Shown: positions 35,901 to 64,000 of the stretch, piece by piece
How the letters are laid out: each line of letters starts with the position of its first letter
Position numbering within the stretch: the stretch's first letter is position 1
Source: Mytilus trossulus
Lineage: Eukaryota
Length of the DNA stretch: 64,000 bases
Reading direction: 5' to 3'
Assembly: GCF_036588685.1 (NCBI RefSeq)
Contig: NC_086374.1
Location: 25,668,001-25,732,000 of the forward strand
Notes under the pieces: generated by a model
The model's input: the letters and a program-made list of their open reading frames with translations, nothing else
Told to the model about the DNA's origin: nothing
Database searches by the model: none
Translations under genes and position numbers: made by a program

Positions 35901-38900
35901 AATTTTAAAATGTTTTTGGAATTTGTTATTGTGAAATTGATTCGTTTAAACAACTTGTCAAATAGTACATAAGTACATTGAAACAGTTATTACAATCACA
36001 TGGTTACCTTTTATGTAATCTAAAATAATATCCGTAATAATGAATTTATGTTTAGAAGATCAAATGCCTAGTCAGTAATTTTTTTTATCAAAGATACAAG
36101 ACTGAAAATCTAGTACGCAAGGCGCGCGTTTCGTCTACAATAGACTCGCCCAACTAATAAAAAGTTGAAAGGCCAAATAAATAACGAAGTTGAAGGGCAT
36201 TGAAGATACAAGATTTCGCCAAAAACAGCTATGGTAATCTTTTTCTGGGAGATAAAATCCTAATATTTCAAAGAATTAAGATTTTCAAAGACCTGTATCT
36301 TTTTTATTCAGTGTGTTATATTTGCAGGTTTTGCTTTAATCATTGTAAACCTTAATAACCCGGCAGGTGAAGAAGATGCAGGTATGTTCTGATTAGTTGT
36401 CTTCAAGACCAGTAAAACATATTTTTATTTGACTAGACATCGACACGGGTATCCTTAACAAATATCACCACATACTATCTTAGAAGTCTGTATGGTGTTT
36501 ATGAAATAAAAATGGAGATATAAGGTTTATGTGTATAAGACAAAGATTGAAAGAAAAACTAGAAAAAAGAAAACAACACTTTATACAATGCATTTGGCCG
36601 AAGAGATTTTCTGGAATAAACTTTACTCAGAACCCTCAAAGCTAAATATTTGAAAGACAAGAACTGGGTATCGACCCACTGCTTTAAAAAAGACAAAAGA
36701 AAACCCATCAATTTATAACTTTCTGCATCTGAAGCGCTCTTATTTTATACTTCTCCAATGCTCAAAGCCGAATGTTTAATAGCCAAAGATAAATGTTTAT
36801 ACAAGAACCGAAACAGTTGAAGAGCTTTAGGACATAAACGAGTTGAAGCCTTAGTTCTTTAATATTTTTTTAATATATCAACAGCCAATATAATAAAGCT
36901 TTGTTTAATTCTCGTCAGTATGAAAGTAGTGATTACTGAGCTGGTGACATCCCCCGAATCGACCCAGTGTTGTAAAAGATTCAAACAGCACTTTTCAGAA
37001 TTTACCACAAACTTTAAAAAAGAAGATGTGGTACGATTGCCAATGAGACAACTGTCCACAAGAGACCAAAATGACACAGACATTAACAACTATAGATCAC
37101 CGTACTGCCTTCAACAATGAGCAATGCCCATACCGCAGGTTACAGTTAAAGCGCGTATGGAGTACTAAAGAGTAAAGGAAGAACTTATGCTTCATCTTTG
37201 AAATGGTAATGAACATAAAACAATTTATTTGTTATTTGTATTTGTTTTTACCATAAGTTAGTGTCGTAAGAGTGTATTTCGAGGATATAAATACCTATAT
37301 GTCACCGCTCGGACTTCAACATTCAGCAAATTATATACCGCATATTATGATACTGTGCACGCAGACCGTGTTATTTTTATTCACAAATAAAAAATGATAT
37401 TGCTTGGTTGTAGAGACAGTGTTTCCTTGCGTTCAATTACGTAAAAAATACTATTTTATCATATAATTTGACAAATATTTTCTATCGAGACGGAAAAATA
37501 TCCCCATGTTGCAAAATGCTTTCCCATAGTGAACATGAGTGTGATATACACAGTAATACACTATGAATATTCTCTGGAACTATATATACACATGTTTATT
37601 TTGTTTTGTCAACCTCGAGCTAATTGATTCTTCTCAGTTTGAATCATCAATGTAAAAATGAGGTAATTCAAAAGTAATGTATAAAATATGTAATAGTACT
37701 GTAACATTTTATAATCCTTTATTCTAGATTACATGAAAAGTCTTTTCAAGGATCATCTGAATTTCAAAGTTGCTACTCACCTGAATTTAGAAGCATCAAA
37801 AATGAAATCAGCCGTTCAACACTATGCTGAACAAGAGTCCTACCATGATATATTTGTCTGTGTGTTTGCTTGTTCAGGAAATCTGGGAGTGTTGTATGGC
37901 TCTGATGGAAAACGAAGTGTACCAATAGAGGATTTGCTACGACCCCTCAGTGAAAGTAGAGGGTTACAAGATAAACCTAAAATTGTCTTAATAGATGCTT
38001 GTCAAGGAGTGGAAGAACATTGTAAGTAACCTATGTATCTAACAAAGTTTGAATTAAATGTATTTCATCTTACAAATATCATGACCAAAACATTAATGAT
38101 TTCTGAATTGATTTGACATATGTTCTATTTTAAGTCGAAATCCATGCAACACCATTAGCTCCACATTCAATCAAAATATCTTGGTCTCAGCACAAAGTTG
38201 GTGAGGGAGATGAAGTAAGATACATGGTTTACTATAGAGTATCCGGAGGAGGAGAACGGTTCGAAGAAATCACAGAACACAATTCTCTGATACTTAGAGA
38301 CCTTCAAGACAATACGGCATATAGAATTATTGTTGTTCCACTATGGAAGTTTCGATCTCTTTCGGGAAAATGGAAAGAGGTCAAAGGTACACCATCTCAA
38401 GAAATTGAATGCTCTACATTTGAAAAAGGTATTCAATTCCATTATTAAGTATCAAACTTTCGCAATGTGTTTTTTAAGAACATGTACCATAAAATGCTGA
38501 TTACTTTAAATGGACACTAAAACTGTATTCTTCCCTTTAATGTACATGTATCTTGTAATCAAATAATAATAAGTATGATACTAGTTACTTACTTTGATAC
38601 GTAAGTACCTAATTTACATTTGATAAGTCAAAATTGCATCTTGTGATCTTTACAAATTTAAGCAAATAAAGAACAATGAGACAAAACACCATCAAAAACC
38701 AAATGACATAGAAGTACTCGTCGTTAGATCACCGTTCGACTTCAGCAATGATAAAAACCCATACTGCTGATCAAGCTTAAACAATGCCACAACATGACAA
38801 ATGTAAAACAATTCAAACGAGAAAACAGATGGCCTGAGTAATGTTCTAACCTTTAATAATTACATTAGATGTAAGTTTCATTATAATACGGTATTCTGAT

Positions 38901-41900
38901 TGGCTAACATGTTATTCCGTAAACAATTGCATCAGACAATAACATTTATCATGCATGATGACACGAGGTCCCACAAAAAAGTGCACATGTGAATTAAATA
39001 AAACTGGATAAAAATCGTGATTTCATGATTTTAGCTAACAAAATGTAATTATAAGTATTGAATACTTCTTTTTGAAACTTTATAGGGTTGTAAAAGCGTT
39101 GACCGTGCGTACATTTTTAGAATGAAGCGCTTCCGCGCTTCATACAAAATGTACTTCGGTCAACGCTTTTACCACCCAATAAATTTACAAAAAGAAGCAT
39201 TCAATTCTTAAATAAAAAAAAAAACCTAATATGATATAATGCACAAACGACAATCACCGAATGACATGTAACGGACATCAGACCGGCATATATAGAGTGT
39301 AGCGGTGTTACACATATTTTCACCACCAAACCCTCCCTTTACATTTATAGACAGTGGCGGGACCATACTTATGTACCTTGTTTATTTATTTGTTACTTAT
39401 AACCACAAATTACTCTCTATTGATGGCCAATATGTTTTAGATTCATTTCAGCCAAGGCATATTAATGCTGTTTCAATGAATCCATATAGCATTGATGTGT
39501 CATGGATTGGACCTAAATATTTTGAAAATATAAAGAATTATATAATATTTTTTCGTGGATCACGGATAACAGTCAGTCCGTCGCCAGATACACTGAACTA
39601 TTTTACACAACTTCATCACTTGCTACCAGACACTGAATACAAATTAAAAGTAGTAGCTGTCTTAAAAAACGGACAGCGAGATGAAGTGGAATTATTTGCC
39701 CACACGAAAAAGAAAGGTATATATATATATGTTATGCAAAATGCAATGTCTCGAAATATAATTCCATATAGCTCTTCTACTATAGCTCAAAATATTGAAC
39801 ACTTGCACAAAAACAACAACACTCCATATTTTAACTATCAAAACCATATATATATATAGATATAAAGCAATTACAAAATTGAGGCTGTGTATGACAGACG
39901 AATGCCATCTTCAAAGTGAGAGTCATCTGGTTCCCAAAAATATACTAATTTAGAGGATTTCTGCTTACTATTGCATCAAGGGTTAACAATGGTAAACTGT
40001 TGAAGTTATGTAATCAAATGTTTTACGTACGGCACACTGATATGGTTTACCGCTATGGTTTGTATGTGTCACTGATGACCATTTATATGGTTCATTTGTC
40101 GTTACCATAATCATGTCATCTTTCCCTCAATTGTTTAGTGGAGGACAAAAGTTACATACAATTTTGTAAATTTCAGAGAACATGCAACCAAAGCAAATCG
40201 ATTGTTTTGTGATTTCACCCACACAGGTGTGTGTAAGATGGAAACCACCAGACGGGAAACACAAACATTTATTAACAAAATACAAAGTTCGGTGGGGTGA
40301 AAGTGCTAGAAACTATAAAGAGATTGACACTGAATACGCTTCGTGTATTTTACGGGACTTAAATGTAAATACAGAATATACAATACAAGTTAATGTTGTA
40401 ACAAAGAAAGGCAAGTTTGATATACCAATAGAAGTGAAGGAGCCTGCAAGAACAACCATTCGAACGACTACTCGTAAGTTAATAATAGCTCCATATAACT
40501 TTACTTTTGAAACACCGTGCAAATACTTCTTTTTAAAAACGTCTTCACTTTGTTTATTACATGTCTATTTTACATATACGAGCTCTTTCGTAGGCAACAC
40601 AGTACACTGTTATTCTTGTTTGTTTCTCACTAAAAAAACCAAGCACGATTACTTCATTGTTGACCACTAAATGCATTCGAGCTACTTTTTCATATTCAAG
40701 ATTTTAAAGTATTTCATTTAGTATACTTTGTGTGTTTGTCATGTAATTATGCGTTGTCCAATGTTTAAATCTCGACAAGCTAATCTAGTATAATTTTATA
40801 CAACATGTAAGTTATTAAAGAAGAAAATCGTATCCTTTTTCTTATATTTTTCAAAATTATAAGCAGGTTATAAAAAGGAAAATCATAAAAATACTGAACT
40901 CAGAGGATAATCTAATCGGAAAGTCCATAATCACATGACAAAATCAAATGACAAAACGAATGGACAAGAACTGTCATATTCCTGACTTGGAACAGGCAAT
41001 TTCAAATTAGAAAATGGTGGATTAAACCTGGTTTTATAGCGCTAAACCTCTCACTTTGTTGACAGTGTCATCAAATTTCGTTATATTTACAATGATGCGT
41101 GAACTAAACAGAGTTAATAAATGAAATAGTCAAAATGTGGAAAAGCAGTCCTCATCGTGTTACAATTTTTAAAGGAACAATTTAATAGCTAGAACACAAA
41201 AACATCTATCTACAAACACATTCATTGATTCGCGTGTTAGACGTCAGAAAATTTTGTACGTCACATATTTTTGTCTTTCGATGTTTACATAAACAATTTT
41301 AAAATTTCACATGGGCAATGTTAGCATACAAGGTTAAAAAATCAAAAGTATGTAAGAACTAATTTCAGAATATAGACCGAGATTTAAAATAGTCCAAAAG
41401 TTCTATGGAATTTATAAGAATCCAAAAATTGTTCATTCCACTACGCGATAGAAAATTTTTAAGGTTGTGGTTTAACATATTTTCGAATTCATAATAGAAA
41501 TATATCATAATGACATATTATAGAACAATAACATACTGACGGGATTTTTTAAAGTACAGAGTCACATTATATAAGAACCAAAGAAACACAAAAAGTCGCA
41601 TATACAAAACACACCAGCAAAAATGACAGATAATACAAACACCTTGACGGGATGTTTAAGTACCGAGCCACGTTAAATGGATATCTCATAAAACAATTCA
41701 ACAGTAAAAGTAATATTAATAATAGAACAAAGACAAATGAAAGAACAATATACATGTTGTTAAGATGAAGATGATAAACAACATCAGTACGCAGAATCCA
41801 TACATCAAGACCATCATGTATTATTTGTGAAGTTGATACGGAATATTTATCAACAAGGTCCTTCCGATAAACTTTTTTAGAAAAAAAACTTCATGACTTT

Positions 41901-43526
41901 TTCTGTCTCTCTTCGACTTACGAGTTTTTAATTCCCTCAATTGTATTTTATGCCTGATTACTGTTGAATGTCTGATCATCTTATTGAATTTCTCTAACTA
42001 AATGCTTCAAAACTTAAAATTGTTCATTTTCTTTTTTAAGCTGGATCCACATATATTCCAAAAGAACCAGATTTCTTAATTGGCATATCTACGATACCAC
42101 GTTTTGGGAGTTACTTAGACCAAGAAAAAGGTTCAAAGTATCTTTCGGCAATCAAACATCACTTTGAAGACAATCCGAGGTATGTTCAACTAGAATTCTA
42201 TTGAACTAGATATTTACTACAAGAACTGTATGACATATTTATCATGTTGAATGCTGTTGAAGTGATATTGTCAAATATATCGAGCTAATATTAGATTGAA
42301 GTTGATGCTATCTTTCTATTGGCTTGCAAACTATTTTAATTAATGTCCATCACATAAATACACTTGAAAAGTTCCTAAGATAAGATAGGTTATATTCAGT
42401 GCTAGAACAGAATGCTAAAAAGAGGCGTAAATAATTATGAAAAAAAATATTGTTCTACATTAAGGGCATACGATACAGTTTTGATCCATTATTTAAAGTT
42501 TGATGGAAATTTCCATTTAGGCTATTTTTTGCCTGATTAAATCAAATATATAATAAAAAAAAATATACCTTCATATGCTACTTTTTGAGTTAAATGAGGT
42601 CGAAATTTTGTATATTTGCTTACAAAATCGGATTTGGGGCAGTATTTTCCCTTTGAAAGAAAGACATAACTGTTTTTGTTTTAAAAGATAAACACAAATG
42701 TTTTTTTGTTAAATCAATTGTAATTTCTGTATTTTATAAGTATCCTAAAAATTTATGCATTTTTTATTCAGAAATAACTCATATTTATAATCAAATGGTC
42801 AAACATGAATTGAGAAAAAACGTCATTTTTTGCTGTATATTAATATAAATTAAAAAAAAATTGCACTATTAACAGTTTTATAAAATTTGGTTCACATAAT
42901 CTCCCTGCAAAATGAAACAAGATGTCATTTTAAAAAATCGGGGTACATGCACTCGTTTTCAAATTAAATCAGTTTGAATGATAAAAATCAGTCGAAAAAT
43001 GCATCTTTTCCCGATATGTCACAGTTTGACGTCGTGAAAATAACATTTTACGTTAGCAACGTCATTATCTCCCCTTTAACTGTATCTTATGCCCTTAATT
43101 AAGCAAATATATATAACTTCCTGTGTTAAGGATAAACAACATATGACATATAACTGCATGACTCTCCTGTTCACACTTTTACAATATATTTATTTTAGCA
43201 ACGCAATGATTCCCGTGCAAACTGATTCATTTTGATAATTGCAAGTAGATCTAGGTATTTTGTTCAAAACATTTTAAGACATTAATTTAGATTCGTAAAT
43301 ACTAGTATAAAATCAGTTAAGTTAAGAATTGAATTTTTGTTGAACGTAGCTATGTGAAGAAACAATATGTTCAAAGTCTCATTTGTTTTTCAGGCTTGTA
43401 AGGAGAGATATAACAACAGTTCTTCAAGAAGCAAATACCATGGTTAACACAGATGAGAACACCACAGTCAGACAGGTGGCTTTGTTATACTCAACACTGA
43501 CAGGACCTATATACTTTAATTCCTGA
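32919..43526 (+). CDS. Gene D: FN3 - caspase p20 - FN3-FN3-FN3 - caspase p10 (~716 aa), catalytic His replaced
   Basis: Exons (+): 32919-32951, 33643-33721, 34048-34119, 34495-34572, 35014-35313 (FN3), 35508-35609 (..YHMGDKTRG), 36328-36381 (GFALIIVN), 37728-38021 (FVCVFACSG..YGSDG..LQDKPKIVLIDACQG), 38135-38428 (FN3), 39441-39716 (FN3), 40177-40473 (FN3), 42041-42179 (IPKEPDFLIGISTIP..GSKYL) and 43394-43526 (..RQVALLYSTLTGPIYFNS*). All GT-AG; 2151 nt in one frame. FN3 exons show the P..V...S.TSI.VSW..P and L.P.TEY.I.V.A signatures. Confidence 0.85.
39052..39210. repeat. Long imperfect palindrome (~77-bp arms), core of a non-autonomous element in a gene D intron
   Basis: ...gtaaaagcgttgaccg..gtacatttt..atgaagcgc TTCC gcgcttcat..aaaatgtac..cggtcaacgcttttac... 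Confidence 0.85.
40880..41880 (+). repeat. Interspersed repeat family R3 (longest copy)
   Basis: aaaaatactgaactc.gagga.aa...ggaaagtcc...caaaatcaaa..gaatggacaagaactgtcatattcctgacttgg. Related copies occur at ~27405-27960 (+), ~57970-58430 (-), ~22370-22620 (-), ~47665-47831 and ~54775-54860. Boundaries approximate. Confidence 0.8.
42464..43094. mobile_element. MITE with TTAA TSD and GG...CC termini (Kolobok-like), last intron of gene D
   Basis: TTAA|gggcatacgatacagtt ... aactgtatcttatgccc|TTAA; 17-bp TIR with one mismatch; non-coding interior. Confidence 0.75.
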
Positions 43527-43963: not shown

Positions 43964-44499
43964 TTAAACCTTTCCGAGAAATACGGGATAACGTAATGTT
44001 GTTACAGACTGTGGAATTTCATAATTGTCCAATGAGCATATTATTTCCTTCTTGACATCTTCGACTATACTTTGTATATCTTTCCTGAAAAAAAATAATG
44101 CAAAAACAAAAGTTTGAAAATAAAAGCGGAATAATTCAATTCTATTCTTGAGCATTTTATATATTGGAAAATGTTTGAAGTTAAATAACGCACGATTATA
44201 ATGGAAGTGCGTACGAATCCGAATTCAAAAGTTTGGTATCTTTGAAGACATTTACAAACACTGCATCGGTGGATGTTTCAATAGTCCTTAATCATGACTT
44301 CTGTGTTGGCTCAGTTTGTCATTGCTACGGTCAGAATTTGTATAATTACAGCTCAGAATTTACACATTTGTTTTTAAACACTTAGGACTAAGAAGGCCTT
44401 AAAAAAATATAGGTGTTATTTTCTCTATTGATGATGTTTAATCAAGTTTGGTCTTTCGACTGTTTTCATTCCACTTGTGTGTCGCGTGTAGCCGAAACG

Positions 44500-44539
<40 letters not shown>

Positions 44540-47500
44540 ATAATAATTCTTTATTCCGTAAGCAAATATACAGCTCATAGGATAAAATACATACACAAAT
44601 TATACAGTTTACATAAACATATACAGCAATAATATATAGCGGAGTTTGGCATACAATTTACATTGGTAATAAAGGTACAAAAAAAAAGCCGAAACGGAGT
44701 TGATGAAAGTTTTTAAAACAGTTTATTTTATCCTTTGGTGGGCATGTATTTTAATATGATATATCTTCTGTTCTGAAGGGGAAAAAAATAAGATTTTCGC
44801 AAACTTTCTAAATACTATATCTTTCCTTTTTATTTTTTCCAATCACAATGTTATATCTTGAAATAACACCATACTAGTAAATGTAGAAAACATACTTTTC
44901 GTATTTTTCTCCAAGATGCCTCTTCAAAGTATTAAGAAATGATGACGTTGAAGACTTGTATGCAGTAGTTGCAGTTGCAGATGCAATAAAAAAGTCAGGT
45001 TCTTCCAATAAATACTGAACTGTTGATCCTATAATACACAACAAACAATCGTAACATACCTTATACATACACAAACAAAGCACGTAAAATACATTATATA
45101 TACAAAAAAGCAAAACACCAAAATAAGCTGAAGAAAAAAAAAATTGGTTGACAACTTTTATCTGCAAAATTAGTATACATAAATATTCAGTAGCATGTGA
45201 AATACTGGAAAAAGTAGATAACAAATGTTCAAATCTCTTTTATTCATGTAATTAAAAAAATCTATGTAGAATCTTACAATTAGTGAAACATGAAAAATAA
45301 AGGCAACAGTAGCATACCGCTGTTCAAAACTCATAAATCCATGGACAAAAAACTAAATCGGGGTAACAAACTAAAACCGAGGGAAACGCATTAAATTTAA
45401 GAGGAGAACAACCGACACAACACTGAAATGTAACACACACAGAAACGGACCAAGCATCAGACAAAATCCCACGACAATAACAAATATAACATCAAAAACA
45501 AATACATGAATTTGGGGTAAACTTATCCTGCGAGTTCTGAAGCGGGGACAGTACATATAGATTTTCAACGGTTTCGGGACTTACACATCCTCGGATTTCA
45601 AATGTTTGGCTTTGAGCGTTCCTGATGAAGGTATATCCAGAAAAGCGCTTCGAACGCATGACATTAATAAACGTGTTGTTTTCAATTTTTTATCACTGTG
45701 TCGATACCTCTGTTGGCTGACTATCAGTCCCCGGGGTCATCATCAGCTCAGTAGTCAGAACTTCATACTGACATGATTTTACAAACTTTTCTAAAATTGT
45801 CCGTTTATAAATTTTGAAGTTATCAAGTAACTAAGATTTCAACTCCCTCAGGCAAAGTTGACTTTAGAAGAATTTGGCTATTCATTTTAAGTATTTTTGA
45901 CATGTAGCTCTGTAACGGTTTCGGTACTTATACATCCTCGGATTTCAAATGTTTGTCTTTGAGCGTTCCTGATGAAGGTTAATCTAGCAAACTTCTTCAA
46001 ATGCATGACATAATTAAACATGTTGTTTTCAAGTGTCTCTTGCTATTGATATATATAAACTTAAAACTTGTGATGAGTTGTTACTTACCTGACATCATTG
46101 AAGGCGTTCCTGAAAGGAAATATAGTTAAAGATAAAAAAAAAAAGAGTAATATATGAAAATCCCATATCATGCATATACTACCCAAAGGTTGATGTATGG
46201 CATTAAATAGACAACTAAAATAAGATATCAAACTTCCATGCATTTTTTTTAAATTTGAGAAAATTCAATTATCGGATTATAGAAATATGAATAGTATTAT
46301 TTGAAAATTAAAGATAATTCCTGAATAAAGTTTCGTGTGTGTTTGTGGAGTTTACTTTGGTTATCAGATACTTAAGGCATGTTTTGAATAATGATGTGAT
46401 ACAAGTACAAGCATAACTCTTTTCTTTTCTCGATATTTTAATTACCATTCTTATTCATTTTCACAACTTACGGTCTGCTAGTGTTGTTATATCAATATAT
46501 ACTGGCATACTTTCTTCGTCTCTGACTTCAGTTTCAATGTCAATCACCTTCCCCTCTACAATCGTTGTCACAGATATATTATACTCTGTGCCTTCCTTTA
46601 GATCGTTAAACACAATACATGTATACGTTGTCATCTTCTGACTATACTCTTCGTGTGTTTGATCCCTGATTGACACTTTATAACCCAGAACTGCCCGGGA
46701 CTCAGGTTTTGGTGGTATCCAGTAGACATAGATTTGAGATGACGATACAGCTTCTACTGAAAGTTTTCTAGGCTGCATAAATTCTGAAAAAAATGTGTGA
46801 AGGGTTATATATTTCGTTTGATTTAATGGAAGTCTTTTCCTCCACTTAATTTCTCCTTTGATGTAGTTTAGTTTTAAGAAGGTAATATCGTTGGTTTACA
46901 TTAGATGATTAACCGTTTTTAACGTGAATATCACCTTACCCTGACAAACTTTACAACCTGTATTGTTTGAATCACAGTTAATGACCAAACTCAGTAAGAT
47001 TCTGTCTGAATTCCATTTTAATGATGAATGAATAATACTTACCGTTACCTTGATAACACGTTAGCCTAAATTATCCAATATTCATAATTATTCTGCCGAA
47101 ATCTAGACACGGAAACTTAATTTAAAAAAATCATTAACAGCTATTCTTATCATTTGTCTCATTTTGATATTTTAATAGATTTGATTGATTGTCGTTTAAC
47201 GTCACAATTGTTACTATTGTGCTATTTCGTGACAGTCAGTTTTTATTGGTGGAGGAAGGGATAGTACCCAGAAAGAATAACCAACTTTCGGTAGAAAAAC
47301 TGAAAATCTTTGATATTTCAGTTTCACAAGGTAAAATCAAAACCATCATTTTCGATAAAAGGGAGGAATGTTTTGGTTTTGTTGTTGGTTTTTTAGTATA
47401 CGGTATATTTATTTTCTTTTTCTTTCCCTATTGTTACTTTTCCTTCTGTGGACGTCAATACTACATTCGTATTCAAACATCCTCGTTTGCTTTATTCGTG

Positions 47501-50500
47501 ACTCATGATGTATTAGATTTCAATAAATCAATCTATAATGGGTAAATTGTTATTTGGATGGAAAGTTGTCTCATTGGCACTCAAACCACATCTTTCTATA
47601 TCAAATTATCTTTTTCTAAATTATTTTAAAAGTACAATGTTATTGCTCATTTAGAAAAGTTGAACAACAAAAAACGCCGAACTCCAAGGAAAATTCAAAC
47701 CGGAAAGTCCGTAGTGGCAAGATAAATAAAAGCGGAATTGCAACATGCAATAATTTATATAGTAAATGGTGGATAGAACTTTGTTTTATATCTTGCCAAA
47801 CCTCTTACTAGTATTGTGTTGACAACGATGTCACGGTGGGTATGGTTGTCCTGCGACAGAACGTACTGTGCTGGTGATTTGGTCCTGACGGGTGCTGGTG
47901 GGTCCTGATTCTGTGCTGGTGGGTTTGTTTACATTGTATCAGAACGGCAATAAAACGACTGTTTTGTTGCTTAATTTTTCTCTGATGTGTCATCAGTATC
48001 ATGCAAAGTATATTACAACAATATTATATTGCAAAAGTCGTGCAAGTTCGTTAAACGGAATTGTCCTGACGCTGTGCTGGTGATAAGAAAAACGGTCCTG
48101 GTTCTGTGCTCCTATGTCCTGTTTCTGTGCTTTTATATTTTAGTTAAAAGTGGTATATATTCAAGATCATTGATGCTGTACTATTATTGACTTATTAGCT
48201 GTTGTCTGCTTTCTTGAAATTAACATTGTTGTGAATCTGTTTACTGTTATTATGAGAGAAAAAAATACCCCTATTTTTAAATATTTTTTTTTAAACTAAC
48301 TGTAATCTTATTTATTGGCCTGTTAATGGAACCCTTCTTGCCCCCTTTTAAGATAAGAAAATATGTTTACGATTTTCGGGATTACGATCATTTTGCAAGA
48401 TCACCAAAATACGTTGTAATTTATACAATACTTATATAAAGTAGATGATGTGGTATGTTTGTTGTCAATGGACAAATTTCCATAAGAAACCAAAGGAAGT
48501 ATGTGTTAACAACGATACGTCATCGTACGACCTTCAACAATAATCCATAAAATAAAAATGTAAAAGGTTTTGCATAAAAATGGAGAGCAAAAATAAAGAA
48601 CAAAGGACTTTCTGAGCGTTTGAATCATGTCTTTAGCAGCTTAAAACACATTTGTTTGTGAACAATTGAGTGCTGACTATAAGAATGACAATAGTATTGC
48701 GGGTTTGTTTGTTTGGTGTTGGGTTTTTTTTTGGGGGGGGGGGGGATAAGTCAGAGCGAGGTTACAGTGAAAGCTTGGAATAGTTTTCCGTAAGATTTAA
48801 AAGTTGTATTGTAAAAGAAAAATGTATCTTATAGCTATTAAGAATCACTTGCTGTAAGATTTTTCCAACACATTTTTTTTTGTCTGAACGGTTATCAGGT
48901 AAATTTTTTTCGAAAGTTCGATAGAACACTAAAAAAAATCACTATTTTATGAAAGGGCAGGCTAGAATATGTCAGAGAATGAAGACGAGATAACCTAGAG
49001 AACACTAATAAAATTAAGATTTCTTAGCTTTTTTTCATTTCAAAATAAATATTTTTGATAAAGAATTACGGGGGAGGAAGTGAACAATTTGTCCTTCTTT
49101 TCTATATATAAATATTTTTCATGAATACAAATAAAATGTGCCTTGATTATAATTGAAAATGAGTAAATGGAAAAAATACCCAACTAAAATACACTTTTAT
49201 TTTAATATTGGTAATATCACTAAGCTTTTAAGTTTTGTCTGTCAAACACACCATCTCTGTAGTAATGACTCCTTACTAAGATATTTCACTTTATTCATTT
49301 TTTTTCTGCATTTTTTTATATTGTGAATTCATAGAATTATTATATTAAAATGTAGCCTTAATTTATATTTAAAAAAAACTGAATCTAAAGCCAGATATAT
49401 CAAACATTTTTGTTTCCATCTATCCGTTTTCAGGACTTTAACAATCAACAATAACACGCCTGGAAAGTAAAATGCGTACTCGGCTGTCTGTAATCGACCA
49501 TTTTTAGACACCCCAGGCTCCTAAAAAACAAGCCGGGGTGGGGGTTCAAAGATGCAAATTAAGTTCTTATATCAATATTTTATCTTTTCGTGTACGGTTT
49601 ATGACCCCTCCTGTGGCCTGTCAATTCCGAAATGTGCAAACTGCAATAGTATCAAAACAGCAAAGACAATGAATAATAGAGATATAATTTTGTACATATA
49701 TCAAGGGGAAACTTCTTGCAAAGCATTATTATTTATAGTTCATTATTGTATTTAGTAGAAAAAGAGAATTAAGTGAAAATAAAATCACCATTTTTGTAGA
49801 AAATTCACAGACCTTTGTACAGATATTTTTGTTATGTTTAGCATGGGATCAACAGAATGGTTCATTACCGACGGTAAAAAAAATCTAAATGTCTATCTAC
49901 CTTGCACATTTCATAAAATTCAGATCAGATAACGGAACTGGTTCCAGCAACATTTATAAGCAATTTAAGATTGTGACCCTCACAGTTTCCATTCACCACA
50001 AATATTCTCGTTACAAGAATCATTTTAAATACAAAAATACGTGTTGCATGCAGCCTTTTGTTTATCTATTAATATATGTATACGGATAAAGTTATGAAAG
50101 GCAGCAGGGTCATCAGGGTGAGGAGTCCATGTCATCTGAAATAAATGCTAAGCATAGATCTAGAAAGCGACATTAAAAAAAGTCTCTTCTTTTCGACTTT
50201 TTTCGAACAAATTGACACATAAAATGAATTATATAGTATTGTGGATTTTTTTAATTATTTTAGATACTATATATTAATTGTTATCTGATATTGGACGAAA
50301 GATGTTGCCCTTTTGTGTTATTATGTAATACAAGTTCAGATCATTTGAAAACACATATTAAACAGCCAAATGGATGCACAAGAGCTAAAATAGGAGTCAT
50401 AGATCCTGTTGGCAACAATTATCTGGCTAATTTTATTGATTTTGTAACATTTGTTTCAAATATGACCAACTTCTTATCCAAAATCACCAGCACAATGACA

Positions 50501-53500
50501 GGACCCACCAGCACAGTATCAGGACATGAATAAATTGTGAAAATGCTAAATTTTAATAAATTGCGATGTTTTTTCACAAAATTGTTTTGTCGTGTGGATT
50601 GCGGTATAGAAAGCGGACTCTATGAGCATTTTTGTTTTATTTTTTCAGTTTGAGATTTTCTAAAAATGAGCATTTTTGTGTTACGCTTACTGAAACAGTT
50701 TAGAGGGTCGTTTTTTTAATGGTTTATATATGAACCCCTAAGAAACGAAATTGAAAAATCTCAACTGTTTTCTTCCATTTTGTATGAGTGAAAACGTCAA
50801 AAATCATCATTTTCGTCTTTGTTTACATTTTTTCATTGATCACCAGCACCCGTCAGGACCAAATCACCAGCACAGTACGTTCTCTCGCAGGACAACCATA
50901 CCCACCGTGGATGTGTGAACAAATATAAAGAAATTACGGGGATCTATATTAGCTCTAATCAACATCTTTTTAGATCTTATAATAGTTGCCTCAAGGGTAA
51001 CGATACCACACATCCTTACATGATAGTGTATTAATATATATTTATAAAAATGATGATGTAAATTTGTAATATTACTTAGTTAATTATACTATTAAAAGTG
51101 TGTCTACCACAACTTAATTTTACCTATGAATATTTAATTTAACTTACGTGGTTGAAACGTTGTTAATGTGGCTTTCACTGGCTTTCCAGAATAGCCATCT
51201 TCAAAATCAGCTGAAATTTCCAGGTTATATTCAGTATTAGAATTTAGTTTATCGAATTTGCAGGAATAACTATCGTTTTGTTGATTAAAGGGTACATGTT
51301 TTATTTGTGATGTAAAAGTGTTGTGTAGTAATAACTTAAAGTCCTTCAATTTCCTTTTGGAAAGTTTCGGTCTTTTCCAAGAAGCTTCTAAAACTGTCTT
51401 TGACGTCGATCGAAACTGAACTGCTCTTGGCTGTAACGAGTCTGAAATAAATCACAGAACTAAATGAGTCAATCGCATAAATTTCATGAACAGAAAAGAA
51501 ATATAACCATATCACTAAAAAGAATCATTATTGGTTTTCTAAAGTTTTGCCTTTTTTGAGTATTTTTCCTCTTACTTTTAGCAAAACAAAATATTTCAGT
51601 TAAATATCAAATTTTCCTGAAAACATATAGGATATCTATGAAAAAAGACCACCCAGTACTATTCCACTTTATTTAATGCGTATTCTTTCGGTTGAAATCT
51701 TTTTTATGCAATGTCTACTTGTCATTCTTAAAAGAAAACAATATGTGATTATCCAGTTTCATGCCAACACAAACCTTGCGCTTTAGCAATCTGTACTATA
51801 TAATAATCCAGTCGCCAATAGGAGTACCTACTACATGTAGAAAAAAATTAAAATTTCTAAATCGCTTTAAAAAACTTGATCCCAACTGCCAAAACCTAGC
51901 CAAGAGTTCAAAGCTACTGTTTGAATAAAGCTGCCTGATAAAACAGAAATTGGTCAAAGCCTAAAATGTGACTAATCGATGTATAATGTTTACAATTTTG
52001 TTGCAATATCAAGAAGGGGGAGAAAACATGTCAATATAAATTCTCAAACTATTCGATCATACCAGTTGAAATTAATACAATACAAAATTCGGAATCTTAC
52101 CATCCAATTCTTCGATGACTTGCTCACGTACTTTAAACGCATCAACAAATACAAGTTTGACTTTGCCTTCCCCGATTTCACATTTGTCTTGTTCCTTCTT
52201 ATCGGCAACCCGTAGTGGTTCAAACACTTTGTTCAGTAAAACTGGTATTCCGTCTGTTCCATAAATGTTACCATTATACATGTAACCAGTAACAACACAT
52301 ATAAAGCAGTCATTTTCATGTTGCTCTAGGCGGGATGAATATTTTTCCACTGCCTGAATTATTCCTAGTCCAGTTATATTTTCTTCAATCAAAACTTCAA
52401 ATCCAAAACCTTCTAGTTGTTCTTTAAAGCTGACTTAAAAATAATAAAACTGAGATAAATAAAAGCAACAGTATTATACCGCTGTTCAAAACTCATAAAT
52501 CCATGAACAAAAAACAAAATCGGGGTAACAAACTGAAACTGATGGAAAAGCATTAAATATAAGAGGGGAAAAACGACACAACAAAGATAACATAGAACTT
52601 TATCATCAATTGAAAATGAAAAAAAAAATCTGGACGGGGTTGATGGTATACAATTGGAACATTGAAATCATTCTGTTCTCAATTCTAGTTTAAAGTCATA
52701 TATTTGTGTGAATATCTAGAAAAACGTCAAGACAAGTAGCAACCCTTTAATGTTTGTATGAGATCTGCTTCATATGTAGTACAAAACAAGTCAGTCAGTA
52801 GAGTTGCACAATATTTACCTATTACAACTGTTTGTTGAAATATCAAACCACCAAACACAACAAATATGTTATCATTAGAAAAAAAGTCCGGCATTACAAA
52901 AATGTAATATACATTGTATTTGTTATGAAAATTAGTGTGGATCAAAGTAAGATGTTTCATAATTTTGAGCAAGGAATTTTATTTACGATTTATATTGTTT
53001 GTAGAAAAAGCATTGTATAAGGAAACGATGTAGTCGATTGTTTAACTGGACGTTCGGGATAGTAGGATTGATTGTAGAAAAAAGTTTTGAAAAATTCTAA
53101 ATATTAACATACTTATTTCTTTTGGGAATATCAATAAACTTACATATATCTGTTTGAATACCATCTAGATCCGTTAGATGAGACAATTGGAAATTCGAAT
53201 GGTTTGCTATGATTAACGCAAATCCATTTACTACAATACAAATGTTTCCATGTTATCATTATATTCCTTTTTTCGAAAATAAAATCTTCTGCATTGAAGT
53301 TGATCATTACTTAAAACATACATTTTAACAAATTCTTAGTTGATAATTTTTCATATCTCGTATAAATACGGTCCAAATTCTTGCAAACAACTTAAAAGCT
53401 CTCCACATGCTGTACGTTCCTGTCACAAGTCTGTAACTCAGGGGTTGCCGTTTGATGTTGTATAGCAAAATTGTCTTTTGTTTTGTGTTTTATACATAAA

Positions 53501-56312
53501 TCAGACCGTTCTTTCACGTTCTACGACGAAAGTGTATTTAATAATTCATTTACAAAATGTTTTGGTGCTACACCTTTGGTGAGACTAAAATGTTCAAGGT
53601 ATTTTGCACTTTTAAAAAGTCAGTTTCATAAAAAGAATAAATGTTTTTGTTTCAAAAAGTGTTTGCTCTATTGAAATCATCATATAATTCACATAATAAT
53701 TTAAGTACAAATATCTATTTTCCTTTTTCACCTTTCTTTTATATATTTGATTTATTTTAGACAAACTATTGTACATACCTGGTTTGAATGTTGTTATTTG
53801 GGAACACTCTGTAATTATTCGATATCCTTCGTTTGCAAGGCCCTCTAATTTCACATCGTATGTTGTCCCTGATTTAAGATCTTCTATTACATAAGACGTC
53901 AAAGACACATCTGGATGTACTGCATGGAACACGGTATTATCATCTGTTTGTTTTCTGAAGAATAAGGTATAAGCCTTCAAGTCTGTATAGTCTACTGGGT
54001 CCCAGTAAACATCTATTTCAGAAGGTGACAATGCATACACTTTCAGACGATCACTTGGAATAACTGTATAGAGAGAAATGACATTCGTAAACATAATTCA
54101 AAAAATAAATAATTTCGATACAAACAATATGCGCTTATACTGTATTACTAGTATATTACACATATTTGCCAAATGCAAGTATCTTAAAATTTAGAAAGGG
54201 AATGGGGAATGTGTCAAAGCGACAACAACCCGACCATAGAGCAAATAACAGCCGTAGCCACCAATGGTTCTCCAATGTAGCGAGAAACTCCAGCACCCGT
54301 AGATGTCCTTCGGCTGGCCCCTTAAAAAATATGTATACTTGTAAAGTGATAATAGACTAACAAAGGCCAGAGGCTCCTTACTTGGGACAGGCGCAAAATT
54401 GCAGCGGGGTTAAACATGTTTATGAGACCTCAACCCTTCCCCTATACCTCTTCATGTATATATTTCTATTCTGTTTATCATATTTCGTCGGTTGTATTCG
54501 ATTTATGAATTTGATTTTCACTTTGGTATCTCGAGTTTTGTTTTAATTGATACGAAACATTAGCAATTCTTGCCAATGAAGATGTTTAAAAAACAATGTT
54601 CATATAAACCACTTTTGACTCTGGAAAAAAGATTATCGACAGATTACCTATTCCGTGATAGGACATTATTATAGTATTCGGATCTGAAAAGCCAACTAAG
54701 TAGTTTATCAAGTATAAGATCGGAGGAAATAAGGGGAAATAACTGTTTTCCGACAAGTTTGCAGTGTAAAAAGTAAATAACAGAAATACTGAACTCAAAG
54801 GATAATTCAAAACGCAAACTCCTTTGTCAAATGGCAATATAAAAAAAATCAATCGAATGGTAAATTAAACATAAAACAAAAATTGCACCGTATTTCTTTG
54901 AGTTGCAATTACTTGACCAAGCAAAAATATAAATACCATACCACAGAGTAGATAACATGCCAAAATAGTATATACTTAGTAAGTCGGTTGCATATGATTT
55001 ATTGCTTACACCAATGTATGTATTGCTCCAATTGTTTTCATCTGGTATTTTATACAAAAGACCAAATTTAGTGAGTTGCTAAAAAATGAAAATAAGACTT
55101 TAAATATTTCGTGCGTCCGCAACACTTTTGTCAATCGACCTTTATCGAAAACGCCCAAAACATAACAATTGAAAGCAACGTGAAAAAAAGACATTTGCAT
55201 AAATATTTTGCATTTAAAACTTATCGCAGGTTTAAGAAAAAGAATACAAAATAACAAGTACTTACTCTTATCCTCTATAGTTTTAACATTCTCCTTCATT
55301 GCTGACACCTGTGTATGTAAATCTTGTATCAAGGATATAACCTGTGCCTTCTGTCGAAATTTGGATAACAACTCCTTCCTGTGTTTAAGTTCTTGCACTT
55401 TTGTATGCAATTCTTCTGTAGTAAGAGATGACAAGTCGTCTGCTTTTTTCCTTTCTTCCACATATTTACTTGTCTGTTCTATCTTCTCATTTAATTCTTG
55501 CAGTTGCATATCAATTTTAGACCGGGCTGAAATATCAGTTGCCATAGGTGCTACACCTTGAATAAAATGAAAATATAAATCTAACAATCTTTGAGTTATT
55601 ACATTCATAATCTGGTACTAAAATAACCAGCATCTATACCAATTTAAGTTGTATCCTAATCCCTTTGATGTAATGAGTTAGAAAACTAAATGTAAGTTCA
55701 AAAACCAAGGACTGCGACTAACTATCCCTAAACCCAAAACAACAATTATCAAAATACTACATCCTTATCATAAATTTAAGACAATCGTTTAATCACATAT
55801 ATTTTCATTACCATATTTTGCTAGAAAGATTTGTAATTTGTTAAAATATGTACATTGACACTTAATAATTACATACTGTTGGAAACATTCTGTACTTCAT
55901 TTGTTCCGAATGAATCTGCTTTTAAATCGTCTTGAAGGTTTGTTTGTTCTTCTGATTGTAATGATTGTATTTCTTTAATAAGTTGTTTTTGTCTAAGAGC
56001 TTTCTTCTGATTTTCCAGTTGTTCTATCTTCATAATAAGTTCGTCTCTAGTTGTAGTGGCACCTTTGTTTTGCTTGGTACTTTCGTTAATGGTCACATTC
56101 CCTATTGCCCTGTTTCTGTCACTGTCTGGAATACGTGCTAATGTATTTGAAGTTGGTTCAACTTTTAGTTTATGCTGATTGTCCTCTTCCTCTATGTTGT
56201 TTTGTTTTTCGGTTAATAATATTTCTGGTGATATATTTGATTCAGTCTTCGTTGGATTTTCGTCATCATCCTCTTTTGTATGATCATTAGATGTTGCTTT
56301 TTCGTTTTCCAT
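43964..56312 (-). CDS. Gene E: coiled-coil - FN3 - pseudo-caspase p20 - FN3-FN3 - p10 (~782 aa)
   Basis: Exons (minus): 56312-55877 and 55556-55266 (E/Q/K-rich heptad-like), 54683-54648, 54063-53779 (FN3), 53230-53144 (GFALIIAN..LDGIQTD), 52433-52101 (CFICVVTGYM..IYGTDG..GKVKLVFVDAF), 51441-51148 (FN3), 46783-46472 (FN3), 46109-46089 (microexon), 45028-44896 (EPDFFIASAT..SSFLNTL) and 44084-43964 (..EIPQSVTTLRYPVFLGKV*). 2349 nt in one frame. Confidence 0.82.
44490..44701 (-). mobile_element. Young 5'-truncated poly(A) retro-insertion with 15-bp TSD
   Basis: Direct repeat agccgaaacggagtt at 44490-44504 and 44687-44701 flanks a 36-nt T run (44503-44538) and ~150 nt of sequence. AATAAA on the minus strand (44550-44555) lies just upstream of the poly(A). 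Confidence 0.85.
45296..45520 (+). repeat. Interspersed repeat family R4
   Basis: aataaaggcaacagtag.ataccgctgttcaaaactcataaatc..aaaac.aaatcggggtaacaaactaaaaccgagggaaac recurs at ~7508-7600, ~52458-52590, ~62865-63020 and ~22780-22940 (-). Confidence 0.8.
47832..50909. mobile_element. Non-autonomous Transib/RAG-like DNA transposon (3078 bp) in a gene E intron
   Basis: 69-bp TIRs (47832-47900 and 50841-50909, one mismatch) begin CACGGTG. A 5-bp TSD GATGT lies at 47827-47831 and 50910-50914. The rejoined empty site (ttgacaacgatgtgtgaacaaa) matches another copy of the host repeat at ~27610-27631. No transposase ORF was seen. CAC termini with a 5-bp TSD are characteristic of Transib. Confidence 0.85.
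52745..52900 (-). mobile_element. Degraded reverse-transcriptase remnant (Penelope-like)
   Basis: Translates as DNIFVVFGGLIFQQTV.I...CATLLTDLF...YEADLIQ, resembling RT motif B. Similar stop/frameshifted fragments occur at ~6130-6240 (+) and ~20868-20975 (+), and SQLIRY.RAC-like C-terminal fragments at ~30900-31180 and ~63150-63420 (+). Confidence 0.5.
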
Positions 56313-57274: not shown

Positions 57275-57480
57275 GAATACTAAGGCTTTTCTACCTCAGG
57301 CATAGATTACCTTAGCTGTATTTGGCAACACTTTTAGGAATTTAGGTCCTCAATGCTCTTCAACTTCGTGTTTTATTTGGCCTTTTAAACTTTTCGGATT
57401 CGAGCGTCACTGGTGAGTCTTTTGAAGACAAAACGCGCGTCTTGCGTATTTACTAGTCCTGGTATCTATGATGAGTTTAG
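57275..57480 (-). repeat. Interspersed repeat family R5
   Basis: The taccagga..tacgc..gacgcgcgttt.gtct..a.aagactca.cagtgacgct motif recurs at ~12705-12830, ~16600-16730 (-) and ~36090-36270. Related segments occur at ~11500-11690 and tandemly at ~45565-46030. Confidence 0.7.
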
Positions 57481-57771
57481 TTTCATGCTATGTTTTTCCC
57501 GTCTGAATCTAACACATCTTTGGCTTTCAAATATTCGGCTTTGAGTGTTTCTGTGGCAGATAAATTCAGACAAGTGCTTCGAACGCATGACATTTATAAA
57601 GTATAGTTTTCATTTTTTTATGCGACAGTATTGTTGCTCTGAACATTTGCTAGAAGTTTCAGGTTTCAGAAGTTCTCACGTTAAACACTGATCATATCAT
57701 GCGTAATAATGAATTGACACATGTTATTGCTAAAAAACAAAACCTTGCAGTATAAGTACAAACATGGATAA

Positions 57772-57960
57772 AAACAAGAGTGTGTCCATAGAACACTGAT
57801 ACCCCACTTGCACTATAGTTTTCTATGTTCTGTGGATCGTAATATTAAGTTCATAACACTAAATTGACATTGAAATTATAAAAATCATATGATAGGTATG
57901 ATAACATGTGTATTAAGTTTCAAGTTGATTGGACTTCAACTTCATCAAAAACTTCCATGA
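57772..57960 (+). mobile_element. Helentron/DINE-like non-autonomous fragment
   Basis: Starts aaacaagagtgtgtcc and contains catgtgtattaagtttcaagttgattggac, motifs I associate with mollusc Helentron-type repeats; recognition from memory only. Confidence 0.35.
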
Positions 57961-59571: not shown

Positions 59572-62500
59572 TTAGTTTCCTTCATCTACATTTTGTTTAT
59601 CATTATCAGGTTCAGCGAGTTTCATCTTTGGAGAACCTCCAAGAAATAATGCTGTGTTCAGTGTCGATGATAATATCGGCATTTCATATCTATCTGATGT
59701 ATAAATCAGCTCATTTCTTACATCTTGTATAATGGACGTTATGTCAAACCTGAAATATAATGAACAGACAAACATTATGTCAAGTTTTAACACAATTAAG
59801 ATTGAAATATATTTTTAGAAAAACCGGAAACCTACTGCTGACATAACAAACAATGATGCATAACTCAATGTTTATCAATCAACTACCGGTATAAGTCCAG
59901 ACTATCCCGGTTTTTGTTTGGGATTCGTGTTGCTTAGTCTTTTGTTGTCTATGTTGTGTTCTGTGTACTGTTGTTTTCACTTTCGTCGTTTTGTGTTTTG
60001 CCATGACATTGACAATTAGTTTTCAGTATGTGAATTTGAATATTTATTTGCTGTCTTTTGCCTCTTTTTTGCATTCATAATTGAAAACTATATAGCGATT
60101 ATTCGAGTTTTCCATTTATGAATTTCCCAATTCGTAATCTCAACAAACTACTACTGCTCACACTGTTTACATTTCATACTTAGTCAATCATTCAATAAAC
60201 CCATCATATATACCAGGATTGAAATATTAATATAACCAGACGCGGCGTTTCCTCTTCAATAAGTGTTTTTGTCAAATCGAGTCGTTTCTAACTGCAGTTT
60301 CTTTTAGCTGTTCGATAAAATCTATATTAAAAAGATAGAGGTTGGTTTCGTCATATGCATATGACATTGATGTCAGGTCTCCCAGTGTCCAAAGACTTAT
60401 TTTCTTAAAGTGTTGTATTCTTGTTATTTATACTAGTAGCTTAACAGGCTATTTCATACGAATCTCAATGCATCAAATACCACCCTAGTTTTCATTCTCA
60501 AATTGAAGCTTAAATTTCAAATGTTAATAGTTATCTTAATAGTCTCGAGTCAAAAATTGAACACGTAACCCCGTGTTTTGGTTGTTGCATCTCCGAATTG
60601 ATTCATTTCTATTATCTAAAAAAAACTTAGAAATAAAAGCTAGTTACACTATCGAAAATCCCATTACTGTAATACAGGGATAAATCATACCTGTTGTGCT
60701 TTTTGAGTAGATGTTTTGCAAAACAGCCAAGAAACGATGGGGACTCATCAGACACAAATGGACCATTGGCAGTAGCTATCATGAAATGTGGTTTACCCAA
60801 AATATGCGTTGTTGACGAGTCTAAAGAAATGAATATAAAATGTACATCATTATCCGAGAGAGAAGTACACAATGATATTACAACTTTGTTTGTTGTTTTT
60901 ATATTTGTCATGGCATGGACAGTTTGTTTTTGTCTTCTGAGTTTGATGGTTCCTTTCATATCTTCAACCTTTCTTTCGTCTCTCTTTATCCGATATTTGT
61001 TATAAGAATCTCGCTACAACATTTGTATTCATTTAGAAAGGAGTTGTACTTTATTATAAGTGTAACAAATAAAAACATGTTATTGTTTTCATCTTGCTGT
61101 TTAAATTTTTCCATAACCTTTCGATCATCTAACTAACAATGTGTCTTAAACAGAAAGACAGTATACAGGTAAATATTTTAAATACTCAAATATATGTGAT
61201 TGGTTAAGACGTGTAAATTGTGTTTTCATAAACTGCTTATGTAATACAAAGAACAAGTGTAGCAGATGCGTAGTACTTGTACTTAAAAAACGCAATACTC
61301 TTTACCTACTTGCAAGAATATCATTCGAAGCAGTAAGTGTAACTTTAAGCTTACCTGCCATAATTATTGGTGTACCTGCAAAAAAAATATGCCTATAATA
61401 TATGATATACAAACGACATTTTAAAAGTGATGATACTTAATATTAATCTTTTATTTTAAAGGAAAATAGTATCGTACTATACTTGGCCTTTCTAGGGAAC
61501 ACATTTTAATTCTGGTTTTTTTCATCGATGAGATTATCTTTTATATGACATCAAGTGGTGACGTTTTATACTTACAATTTTCCAATGCGTATTTCATTAC
61601 CACATAACATTACATTCAAAATATTTACAGCTACTTTCAATTAGTGATTAGTTTAATTCTGTACTAAGAGGTAAACATTCAAAAGTTGCAACATCTGATG
61701 CTTAAACAAATAAATAGATAAACCCACCATCTTTTGGTGTTGTTATCGACACTTCAGCTGGATCACTATACTCAACATTGTTTTTGTCCCTCTTTACTGA
61801 AGAGATTTTGATCGTATACATAGTATTTTGTTTCAAATTATCAAATACATGACATGGATAGGATACAGTTATTCCTTCGAATTCTTCTTGGTCTGTTGAT
61901 TTGTGGGATATATGATACAATAGATTGTCAGAGTTTTCTGTGGATGATTGTTTCCAAAAGGCATAGATCTGTGATTGAGAAATCAACTCAAGTCCAAATG
62001 CAACAGGACAATTAGATTCTGGAAAAAAAGAGAAGTATATCAGAGATAATACTAGTAAATAAAAAAAAAATACTTTTTGAGTCCTGCTTTTTTATTTTGT
62101 TTGCTTCAACCTACATAAAATACGCAAATGCTTAAGCAACATACTTTCTCCGCATTAATAATTCATATTTGAAAAGTTATCTGGCTATTAATTTTGTAAC
62201 ATTTACCTTTATTACTCGTTTTAATTATTCCGTTGACTGCTTGGCCATTATGTTCTGGATATGATGCAAACACTTCAAATTTATATTCTGTATTAGTTTT
62301 CAGTTTACCAAGTTCACAAATATAGGCTTCTTTTGTATGTTCTGCATTTATATACTTCATTTTTGTCTTTTCTCCATCATTTAAAGCAACTACGAATCGA
62401 CTGACTTGTATCTCTGAGAGTTTTGGATATTGGAATGAAAATTCAACACTTGTTGGATCGATGTATCGAACTTTAACATTTCTTGGTTGGTTTGAGTCTG

Positions 62501-64000
62501 TAAGATAGTTTTAAAATCATTAGAAATAACAAAATTTCCATAAAACAATGCCACTGCACCTAACAATCATAAGAGTAATACCTCAAGTATGCAGCAATAA
62601 AGCTACAAAAAAAATGAATTGCAGACTCTAAAGCAGTAATTACTTTAAAGATTTATTCTAATTTATCTATTGAAATTCTTTATCATCATTACATTAGAAA
62701 GACGTATATCATTCATACATCTTCATTTTCAAAATATTGCACAGAAAATAAGTGCTTCTTATATTTGTAGAAAAAAATGAACATTTCAAACATTGATATT
62801 GGCTGTAGATGATTTTTAACAGACTTGAGTATGTAATTTTACAACTTTTTGCGATTGTATTCTTTTATAAAGGCAAGAGAAGTATAACGCTGTTCAAAAG
62901 TCATAACTCGATTGAGAGAAAACAAAACCGAGGGAAACACATAAACTATAAGAGGAAAACAATGAAACATCAGAACACTGAAATGCAACCAAAAGCAAAC
63001 AACAATGCAACATACATAGAAACATATAACTGTTTCAGCTTCGAACTCAATATGAAGGATACCACATATACATTTCAGCTTCTTAAATTGACTTACATCT
63101 AGAAATTAAAAATAAAAATCGGATAAGAACAAAACTTTGCTATCAAAAGAAACAATTTCATAGCTGTGAGTGTATATGGAGTAAATGTCCCCTAGTTAAT
63201 ACGATAGCTTATAGCTTGCGTTTCCCATCATGTTTTCCTTGGAATAGGGTTACTGCTTACAAAGAGATATTTTAGACAGGAAAACCAAGTGGTAAAGTTG
63301 GTAAAGTTCCCTTCGAAATTTTATAGACGCTACCACGAGTGGTTTTACCGTTATCGAATGATATGTTTCACAAATTACTATAGATATGTTCCAATTGTTG
63401 TGAACACAATCCCGTAAGTCATCTTTTACTCGAATTTAAACTGATATGAGCAGCACGATGGGAGCAAAATGTGGGACATAACTCTTACAATAAACCAGAT
63501 ACCAACCCCGGTTTTTGTTGGTGTGTTATAAGAAGTGTTTTTTGTGTAGTGTTTTGTAGATTGTTGATTGTCTTTTCGTCGTTTTCTTTCTTTATTGTCA
63601 TGGCGTAGCATTTTGAGTTTAGATATCTCTGGTATCTTCCGCGTTTGTTTTCCGGAAATATGTTTTCTGAACAATCTTCATCACTAAAGTGTGACATTAC
63701 AAAAATCTAAAAATACATAAAACAGTTGTAAGCATACATATAAAAAATGTCGACACAGAACAGTCAGATCCTTCTTAATTCAGCTTTGAGTAGAGTTTAT
63801 TGAGAAATGAGCATTGCACGTTTTATCTAAATTTGCAATCTATATTAATTGTATGTACTAAAATAAATACCATCAAGTTCCTGTATTGTTTCTTCCTTGA
63901 TTTTGGCAGTATCTATCAACACAATTCTTTGTTTACCCTGGGCATCCGTGGAATCAGTGTTAATATCATATTTCAAACAATCTATTAATCTGCTTATTAG
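59572..64000 (-). CDS. Gene F (5'-partial): pseudo-caspase p20 end - FN3-FN3 - p10; paralog of gene E
   Basis: Exons (minus): >64000-63871 (..GKQRIVLIDTAKIKEETIQELDG, aligning with E's GKVKLVFVDAFKVREQVIEELDG), 62497-62207 (FN3), 62018-61728 (FN3), 61375-61355 (microexon GTPIIMA), 60820-60691 (KPHFMIATA..SFL) and 59749-59572 (..EMPILSSTLNTALFLG..*). Phases are identical to gene E. Confidence 0.8.

Follow-up and report, generated by a model that had tools for sequence, protein, structure and literature searches.

Organization of the caspase gene cluster

We analyzed a window of 64,000 nucleotides from the Mytilus trossulus genome (contig NC_086374.1, positions 25,668,001 to 25,732,000, in an assembly of 1.30 Gb and 541 contigs); all coordinates below are positions in this window. 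Six caspase large-subunit exons, designated A to F, are located within ~68 kb, with the exon of A lying just left of the window and gene F running off its right end. The two neighbours within the window that carry intact dyads are the following.

15255..19107 (-): caspase domain of neighbour B; dyad and R179-equivalent intact, R341-equivalent replaced by Asn, no FN3
28926..30141 (-): neighbour C; dyad-intact large subunit only, own small-subunit exons not found

Alignment of the caspase parts of A to F with two caspase-8 proteins revealed His and Cys at the dyad positions of A, B and C, while His, Cys, Gln and both S1 arginines are all present in A alone among these neighbours. Profiles of both small-subunit exons, scanned over 204 kb, detected five and five exons versus six large-subunit exons, and none for C. 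Since the leave-one-out control of the same profiles recovered the small-subunit exons of B (E 2e-7 and 5e-4) and D (2e-7 and 0.04), we rejected hidden small-subunit exons for C, as well as C as a self-sufficient enzyme. C is thus predicted to be large-subunit-only, unless it is spliced onto the small-subunit exons of B. The sequence-only reading, an earlier inspection of this DNA, described B and C as dyad-intact and as possible partners for D, E and F. This holds for their large subunits, but not beyond them: C is without small-subunit exons and B lacks one S1 arginine, and therefore A is the only candidate for a canonical partner.

The C large-subunit exon ends in phase 1, and a B small-subunit exon on the same strand begins in phase 1 (28926-30141 and 15255-17239, -). 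By in-frame alternative splicing, the two large subunits of B and C could share one small subunit. A Mytilus coruscus protein, LG02.t1165, is reported to have one p20-p10 domain and one p20-only domain, with peak expression in juveniles and gill, 17.6 and 20.2 FPKM (PMC10967218); judging from the numbering, it may correspond to B plus C.

Other features were observed around the neighbours. A, B and C have a common N-terminal exon of ~90 aa (56-556, 19585-19920 and 30471-30815, -; 38-53% identical), an unnamed prodomain without a Pfam match in B or C. Just upstream of this exon in A is a 487-aa Gln/Asn/Lys-rich open frame with short repeats (966-2426, -), possibly the low-complexity N-terminus of A. 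A decayed piece similar to the B large-subunit exon is found on the opposite strand at 20250-20342 (+), with 53% identity over 32 aa and E 0.008. Between A and B, an uninterrupted 471-aa ORF (9815-11227, +) resembles bacterial HldE, the bifunctional enzyme of ADP-heptose synthesis. It includes PfkB and cytidylyltransferase domains, and its NCBIfam match (E 1.4e-80, 271 bits) is below the cut-off of 521. An animal HldE-like gene in a caspase cluster may merit a separate study.

FN3 domains split the caspase domains of D, E and F

The sequence-only reading omitted the FN3 exons that split each of the three remaining caspase domains. The reconstructed gene models are listed below; the contigs mentioned come from runs taken as RNA by guess, none being recorded as RNA, and their depths were not used.

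32919..43526 (+): gene D, 13 exons, 716 aa; N-terminal segment, FN3, large subunit, three FN3, small subunit
34048-34119 (+): D exon 3
35014..35313 (+): D N-terminal FN3 exon, phase 1-1 (Pfam fn3 6.2e-11; putative RNA contigs)
36328..36381 (+): D first strand and shortened R179 loop, Arg to Asn (alignment)
37728..38021 (+): D large-subunit exon with CSG and DACQG (motifs, Pfam, caspase-8 match)
38135-38428, 39441-39716, 40177-40473 (+): D three linker FN3 exons (Pfam fn3 1.7e-6, 5.8e-9, 6.6e-11; joined in putative RNA contigs)
42041-42179, 43394-43526 (+): D small-subunit exons, R341-equivalent Leu
43964..56312 (-): gene E, 10 exons, 770 aa; N-terminal region with a likely coiled coil, FN3, large subunit, two FN3, small subunit
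53779..54063 (-): E N-terminal FN3 exon (Pfam fn3 8.1e-6)
52101..52433 (-): E large-subunit exon with GYM and DAF (Pfam, alignment, putative RNA contigs)
51441-51148, 46783-46472 (-): E two linker FN3 exons (Pfam fn3 7.6e-7, 1.1e-10; spliced to the large-subunit exon in putative RNA contigs)
46109-46089 (-): E 21-nt micro-exon between the last FN3 and the small subunit
45028-44896, 44084-43964 (-): E small-subunit exons (alignment, profiles)
59572..64000 (-): 3' part of gene F, which runs on ~4.3 kb past the window
63871..64000 (-): end of the F large-subunit exon with DTA, spliced to the first linker FN3 in 4/4 runs
62497-62207, 62018-61728 (-): F two linker FN3 exons (Pfam fn3 4.6e-7, 2.3e-4)
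61375-61355 (-): F 21-nt micro-exon between the last FN3 and the small subunit, fitting a gap in a putative RNA contig
60820-60691, 59749-59572 (-): F small-subunit exons (contigs, profiles)

Each gene encodes one FN3 domain ahead of the large subunit and further FN3 domains in the linker: three in D, two in E and two in F. All nine candidate FN3 exons near D, E and F match Pfam fn3 (E 2.3e-4 or better), and a tenth is located beyond the window, where F also encodes a likely coiled coil, the first strand and the start of the large subunit. The earlier observation that reading frames and splice sites are intact was borne out: no stop codon interrupts the models (716, 770 and 679 aa for D, E and F), and within the window all introns are GT-AG. 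So are the remaining introns of the models, with one exception beyond the window: in this assembly, the first intron of F has TG at its end. This TG end sits 3.7 kb right of the window, at a place where contigs of other mussels splice, and F may have a different N-terminus in this haplotype.

The caspase domain is recognizable across the insertions. The Pfam Peptidase_C14 matches of the single large-subunit exons (E 3.8e-14 for D and 9e-10 for E) are too strong for the caspase likeness to be due to chance. In the complete D protein, the C14 match spans residues 221-712 as one stretch around the FN3 domains (profile positions 1-232 of 233), and the E and F orthologues behave similarly. In a search of solved structures, caspase-8 aligns to D residues 238-334 and 610-696. 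D, E and F each contain a large and a small subunit in one chain, as the caspase (C14A) fold family does, and in the alignment the whole small subunit is kept in all three, including its last strand. A crude scan found no hydrophobic leader or membrane segment in D, E or F, and hence the proteins are probably cytosolic.

Structure prediction was less informative. AlphaFold2 runs with 11-row alignments gave mean pLDDT of 49.8 for the D orthologue and 40.2 for the F orthologue, the caspase halves being of low confidence, and a fold search returned FN3 proteins only. Complex prediction for two copies of D residues 219-716 scored 0.01, the mark of the tool being 0.32, and carries no weight either way.

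Loss of catalytic and S1-pocket residues

The replacements reported by the sequence-only reading were all found in place: in D, CSG substitutes for SHG (37871, +; His to Ser) and Cys is kept in DACQG (37994, +); in E, the motifs are GYM (52287, -; His to Tyr) and DAF (52143, -; Cys to Phe); and in F, DTA (63913, -; Cys to Ala). The His region of F, just outside the window, has SYK for SHG, i.e., Tyr for His; a His is found three residues further on. When D, E and F are aligned with A, B, C and two caspase-8 proteins, the His/Cys positions read Ser/Cys in D, Tyr/Phe in E and Tyr/Ala in F, and none of the three has the dyad of an active caspase. We considered the shifted His of F as a rescue and rejected it, because the Cys and the Gly after the His position are both lost. 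For D, no other invariant His occurs near the motif in the sequences of 11 orthologue rows.

The S1-pocket arginines, previously noted as absent, are indeed replaced at both positions in the same alignment. The R179-equivalent is Asn in D, Leu in E and Ile in F; the S1 Gln is Asp in all three; and the R341-equivalent is Leu in D, whereas E and F have a shortened loop without Arg. The Arg-Gln-Arg triad of active caspases thus reads Asn/Asp/Leu in D, Leu/Asp in E and Ile/Asp in F. The loss had been called graded. It is real, but it comprises two steps rather than three: D keeps the Cys and the Gly after the His position, whereas E and F have lost His, Gly and Cys.

Splicing, conservation and selection

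Contigs from the putative RNA runs lack the introns precisely. The large-subunit exon of F is joined to the first linker FN3 exon in all four runs, from three studies, and one contig of 1664 nt spans the first FN3 domain through both subunits to the 3' end. Among the matches listed, the E large-subunit exon is joined to the FN3 exon in three records, and others connect the linker FN3 exons of D with one another and with the last exon. Full-length D, E and F proteins are encoded on single Logan contigs 2.3-2.6 kb long (P0002, P0014, P0033, P0041).

Selection was assessed from the 40 best-supported sites in each of two regions. In F (40 of 103 differences), 37 sites are coding, 22 synonymous and 15 non-synonymous (pN/pS 0.19, p 9e-7). 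In the D-E region (40 of 528 differences), six sites are in D exons, all of them synonymous, and no listed site is coding in E, for which the evidence of selection is protein conservation alone. Compared with five orthologue sequences from Mytilus, the caspase halves of D show 0-3 differences in 206 residues, and the second linker FN3 domain has no changes among its 92 residues in five Mytilus sequences.

The dead sites are themselves conserved. CSG and DACQ are present in 11/11 D rows (four short fragments of the 15 cluster members were left out), GYM with DAF or DAY in 13/13 E rows (five fragments and 21 of the 22 members of one cluster were left out), and SYKYHG in 11/11 F rows, with DTA in nine and DTV in two (two isoforms were left out). 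The D large-subunit exon is 99% identical to an M. coruscus protein whose 90% cluster spans five named Mytilus species. Relatives at ~58-80% identity, probably from other mussels, carry the same replacements. Consecutive GenBank numbers are assigned to the D, E and F proteins in M. coruscus, and the trio is therefore syntenic. The earlier proposal that D, E and F are maintained as non-catalytic proteins, to be abandoned if the genes evolved neutrally and were unexpressed, is strengthened by these spliced contigs, purifying selection and conserved dead sites.

A profile search of 1.84 billion representatives yielded 2027 hits. The best 150 of them include one protein with FN3, from the cluster of F itself, and five more single-exon fragments of the D/E/F type, the rest being ordinary caspases. 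Searches of the same genome, which set lower bounds, detected neither another E-like caspase nor another copy of a linker FN3 beyond the cluster, and two metagenome scans aimed at the flanks of distant orthologues gave no hits. Within what was searched, the FN3-split architecture appears confined to mussels.

Origin of the insertion

All FN3 exons have phase 1-1, and the linker set sits in a phase-1 intron that is also present at the same place in A and B; the large-subunit and last exons of D have the same lengths as those of A and B (294 and 133 nt). These features point to exon shuffling into an A/B-like gene as the probable source of the FN3 exons. The linker domains of E and F correspond in order, and the last one also matches the last one of D (E 7e-14, 1e-11 and 2e-10), which fits a single insertion of the linker set.

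In a 46-row tree built under a mixture model, D, E and F form one clade (96/85) that joins A/B (99/96). A quick tree of 117 rows, built without 51 library hits that lacked a full domain, agrees with supports of 87 and 95. These trees place D/E/F as a sister group sharing descent with A/B, with the caveats that the branches joining A/B are long, that the outgroups were picked by a D/E/F profile and that no paracaspase is included. In a tree without E and F, A is still the nearest row to D, but without strong support.

D, E and F all have Asp two residues before the Cys position, which the sequence-only reading regarded as para/metacaspase-like. The residue is there, but kinship does not follow. 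The best solved-structure matches of D, E and F are caspase-8, -3 and -7, and MALT1 and metacaspases are absent among the best 60 of 139 (D), 110 (E) and 153 (F) matches. We therefore rejected paracaspase membership and regard this Asp as a single shared residue.

Predicted role of D, E and F

As a reading to which we give about an even chance, D, E and F are predicted to be non-catalytic scaffolds within caspase signalling. The last small-subunit strand of caspases is the dimer interface. In this model, the two caspase halves would re-pair into the caspase fold with the FN3 tandem looped out, the retained last strand would still form the dimer, and the FN3 domains would bind partners as displayed arms. 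Through the retained caspase surface, the proteins could self-associate or engage an active relative, for example A. Caspases are described as obligate dimers in which linker processing creates contacts between neighbouring subunits (PMC11121540). Since 190-290 inserted residues fill the linker whose processed ends stabilize the active dimer, a partner caspase would more plausibly be restrained or localized than activated in the manner of FLIP(L). According to the alignment, an Asp that A and B have at an exon junction is retained in E and F, but not in D. E and F contain additional Asp residues beyond their last FN3 domain, and with these sites they may be caspase substrates. Several observations speak against the scaffold role in caspase signalling: there is no DED or CARD to bring the proteins to a platform, A is the only canonical partner among the neighbours, D is without the junction Asp, and the strong constraint on FN3, such as that on the second linker domain of D, fits a role without a caspase partner.

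The main competing explanation, possible but with clearly less in its favour, is that D, E and F are caspase-independent adaptors, whose dead fold is used in another pathway solely as a dimer hub that holds the FN3 arms and, in E and F, the coiled coils. About half of each protein consists of FN3 domains, on which constraint is as strong as on the caspase halves, death-fold domains are absent, and pseudoenzymes can have roles different from those of their active counterparts (PMC7586951). On the other hand, D/E/F are the sister group of the neighbouring caspases, E and F have kept the linker Asp, and none of the analyses suggests a non-caspase partner. A more elaborate proposal, which we find unlikely, is a release switch operated by caspases: active caspases of the cluster would cut the FN3 tandem out of E and F at Asp sites on either side of it, so that a binding module would be released or moved, while D would have a reactive Cys independent of His and C would be an alternative large subunit spliced onto the small subunit of B.

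It is rather improbable that E and F are dead but D is not, its Cys working without the canonical His, e.g., in a protease for basic residues or as a thiol sensor with the Cys beside the lost His. No clan CD protease is known to us to be active without His. Of the three proteins, D shows the highest conservation, its Cys and the Gly after the His motif are kept in 11/11 rows and in the fragment P0063, and the exchange of Gln for Asp with loss of both S1 arginines would suit such a change; yet Ser occupies the His position in every D row, no other nearby His is invariant, and both His and Cys are described as essential (PMC7836458). We consider it most improbable that the loci are decaying duplicates or annotation artefacts combining caspase and FN3 exons of different genes. 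The TG end of the first F intron and the often partial public models of the D, E and F loci could be taken that way, but against it stand purifying selection, the large-subunit to FN3 splices in F and E and the full-length proteins encoded on single contigs.

Comparison with known caspases and pseudo-caspases

To our knowledge, no pseudo-caspase other than FLIP(L) has been studied well; D, E and F add three conserved pseudo-caspase candidates of independent origin. As in D, E and F, the dyad of human cFLIP(L) is lost, its replacements are conserved and its gene adjoins active paralogues; E and F also retain a linker Asp as a candidate cleavage site, FLIP(L) being cut in the intersubunit linker at Asp376 (PMC7586951). 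Unlike cFLIP(L), D, E and F arose from the mussel caspase cluster, lack tandem DEDs, contain FN3 before and inside the caspase domain and, in D, keep the Cys; heterodimers are only predicted for them. Searches for DED, CARD and Death families gave no match at E 0.01 in the four full-length proteins of the D/E/F type.

Both subunits of caspase-8, -3 and -7 (C14A) are recognizable in D, E and F, which differ by the loss of dyad and S1 residues and by a linker enlarged with two or three FN3 domains. In MALT1, immunoglobulin-like domains flank the protease. MALT1 and metacaspases share the Asp with D, E and F, but are active His/Cys enzymes, and in D, E and F the beta-sandwich domains within the protease domain are of the FN3 type.

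The closest published description concerns M. coruscus LG02.t1168, laid out as a coil (36-75), FN3 (85-177), p20 (178-306), two FN3 (317-411 and 414-507) and Pfam C14 at 182-593 (PMC10967218); from layout and numbering, not sequence, it is very likely the F orthologue. The available text of that study stars it as dyad-mutated, classes it as p20-only and assigns FN3 to the prodomain, although its own domain table sets two FN3 after p20; there, neither the small subunit nor the linker insertion is described. LG02.t1168 is the only FN3 carrier among the 47 M. coruscus caspases and peaks in juveniles and gill (7.6 and 4.5 FPKM), and dyad mutations are called ubiquitous in bivalve caspases (PMC10967218). 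Oyster caspases without dyad and without p10 are also known, in an account stating that bivalves have no identified FLIP homologue and, in its accessible part, making no mention of fibronectin (PMC7836458). The pseudo-caspase status is thus partly in print already, and the split architecture is the newer part.

Our literature search, which covered openly accessible text, yielded no description of FN3 inside a caspase linker, or of this layout with folded domains inserted in the activation linker. With this layout, it becomes possible to test if a caspase fold can accommodate 200-300 inserted residues and if cargo can be carried in the linker. The D, E and F models also correct existing annotation: databases name proteins of this type COL12A, PTPRF-like and sidekick-like, so caspase surveys miss or truncate them. 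Bacterial clusters in the ESM Atlas combine Peptidase_C14 and FN3 in one protein (scores 0.77-0.85, the mark being 0.9), a lead based on shared domain content and not on domain order; this likeness is probably convergent.
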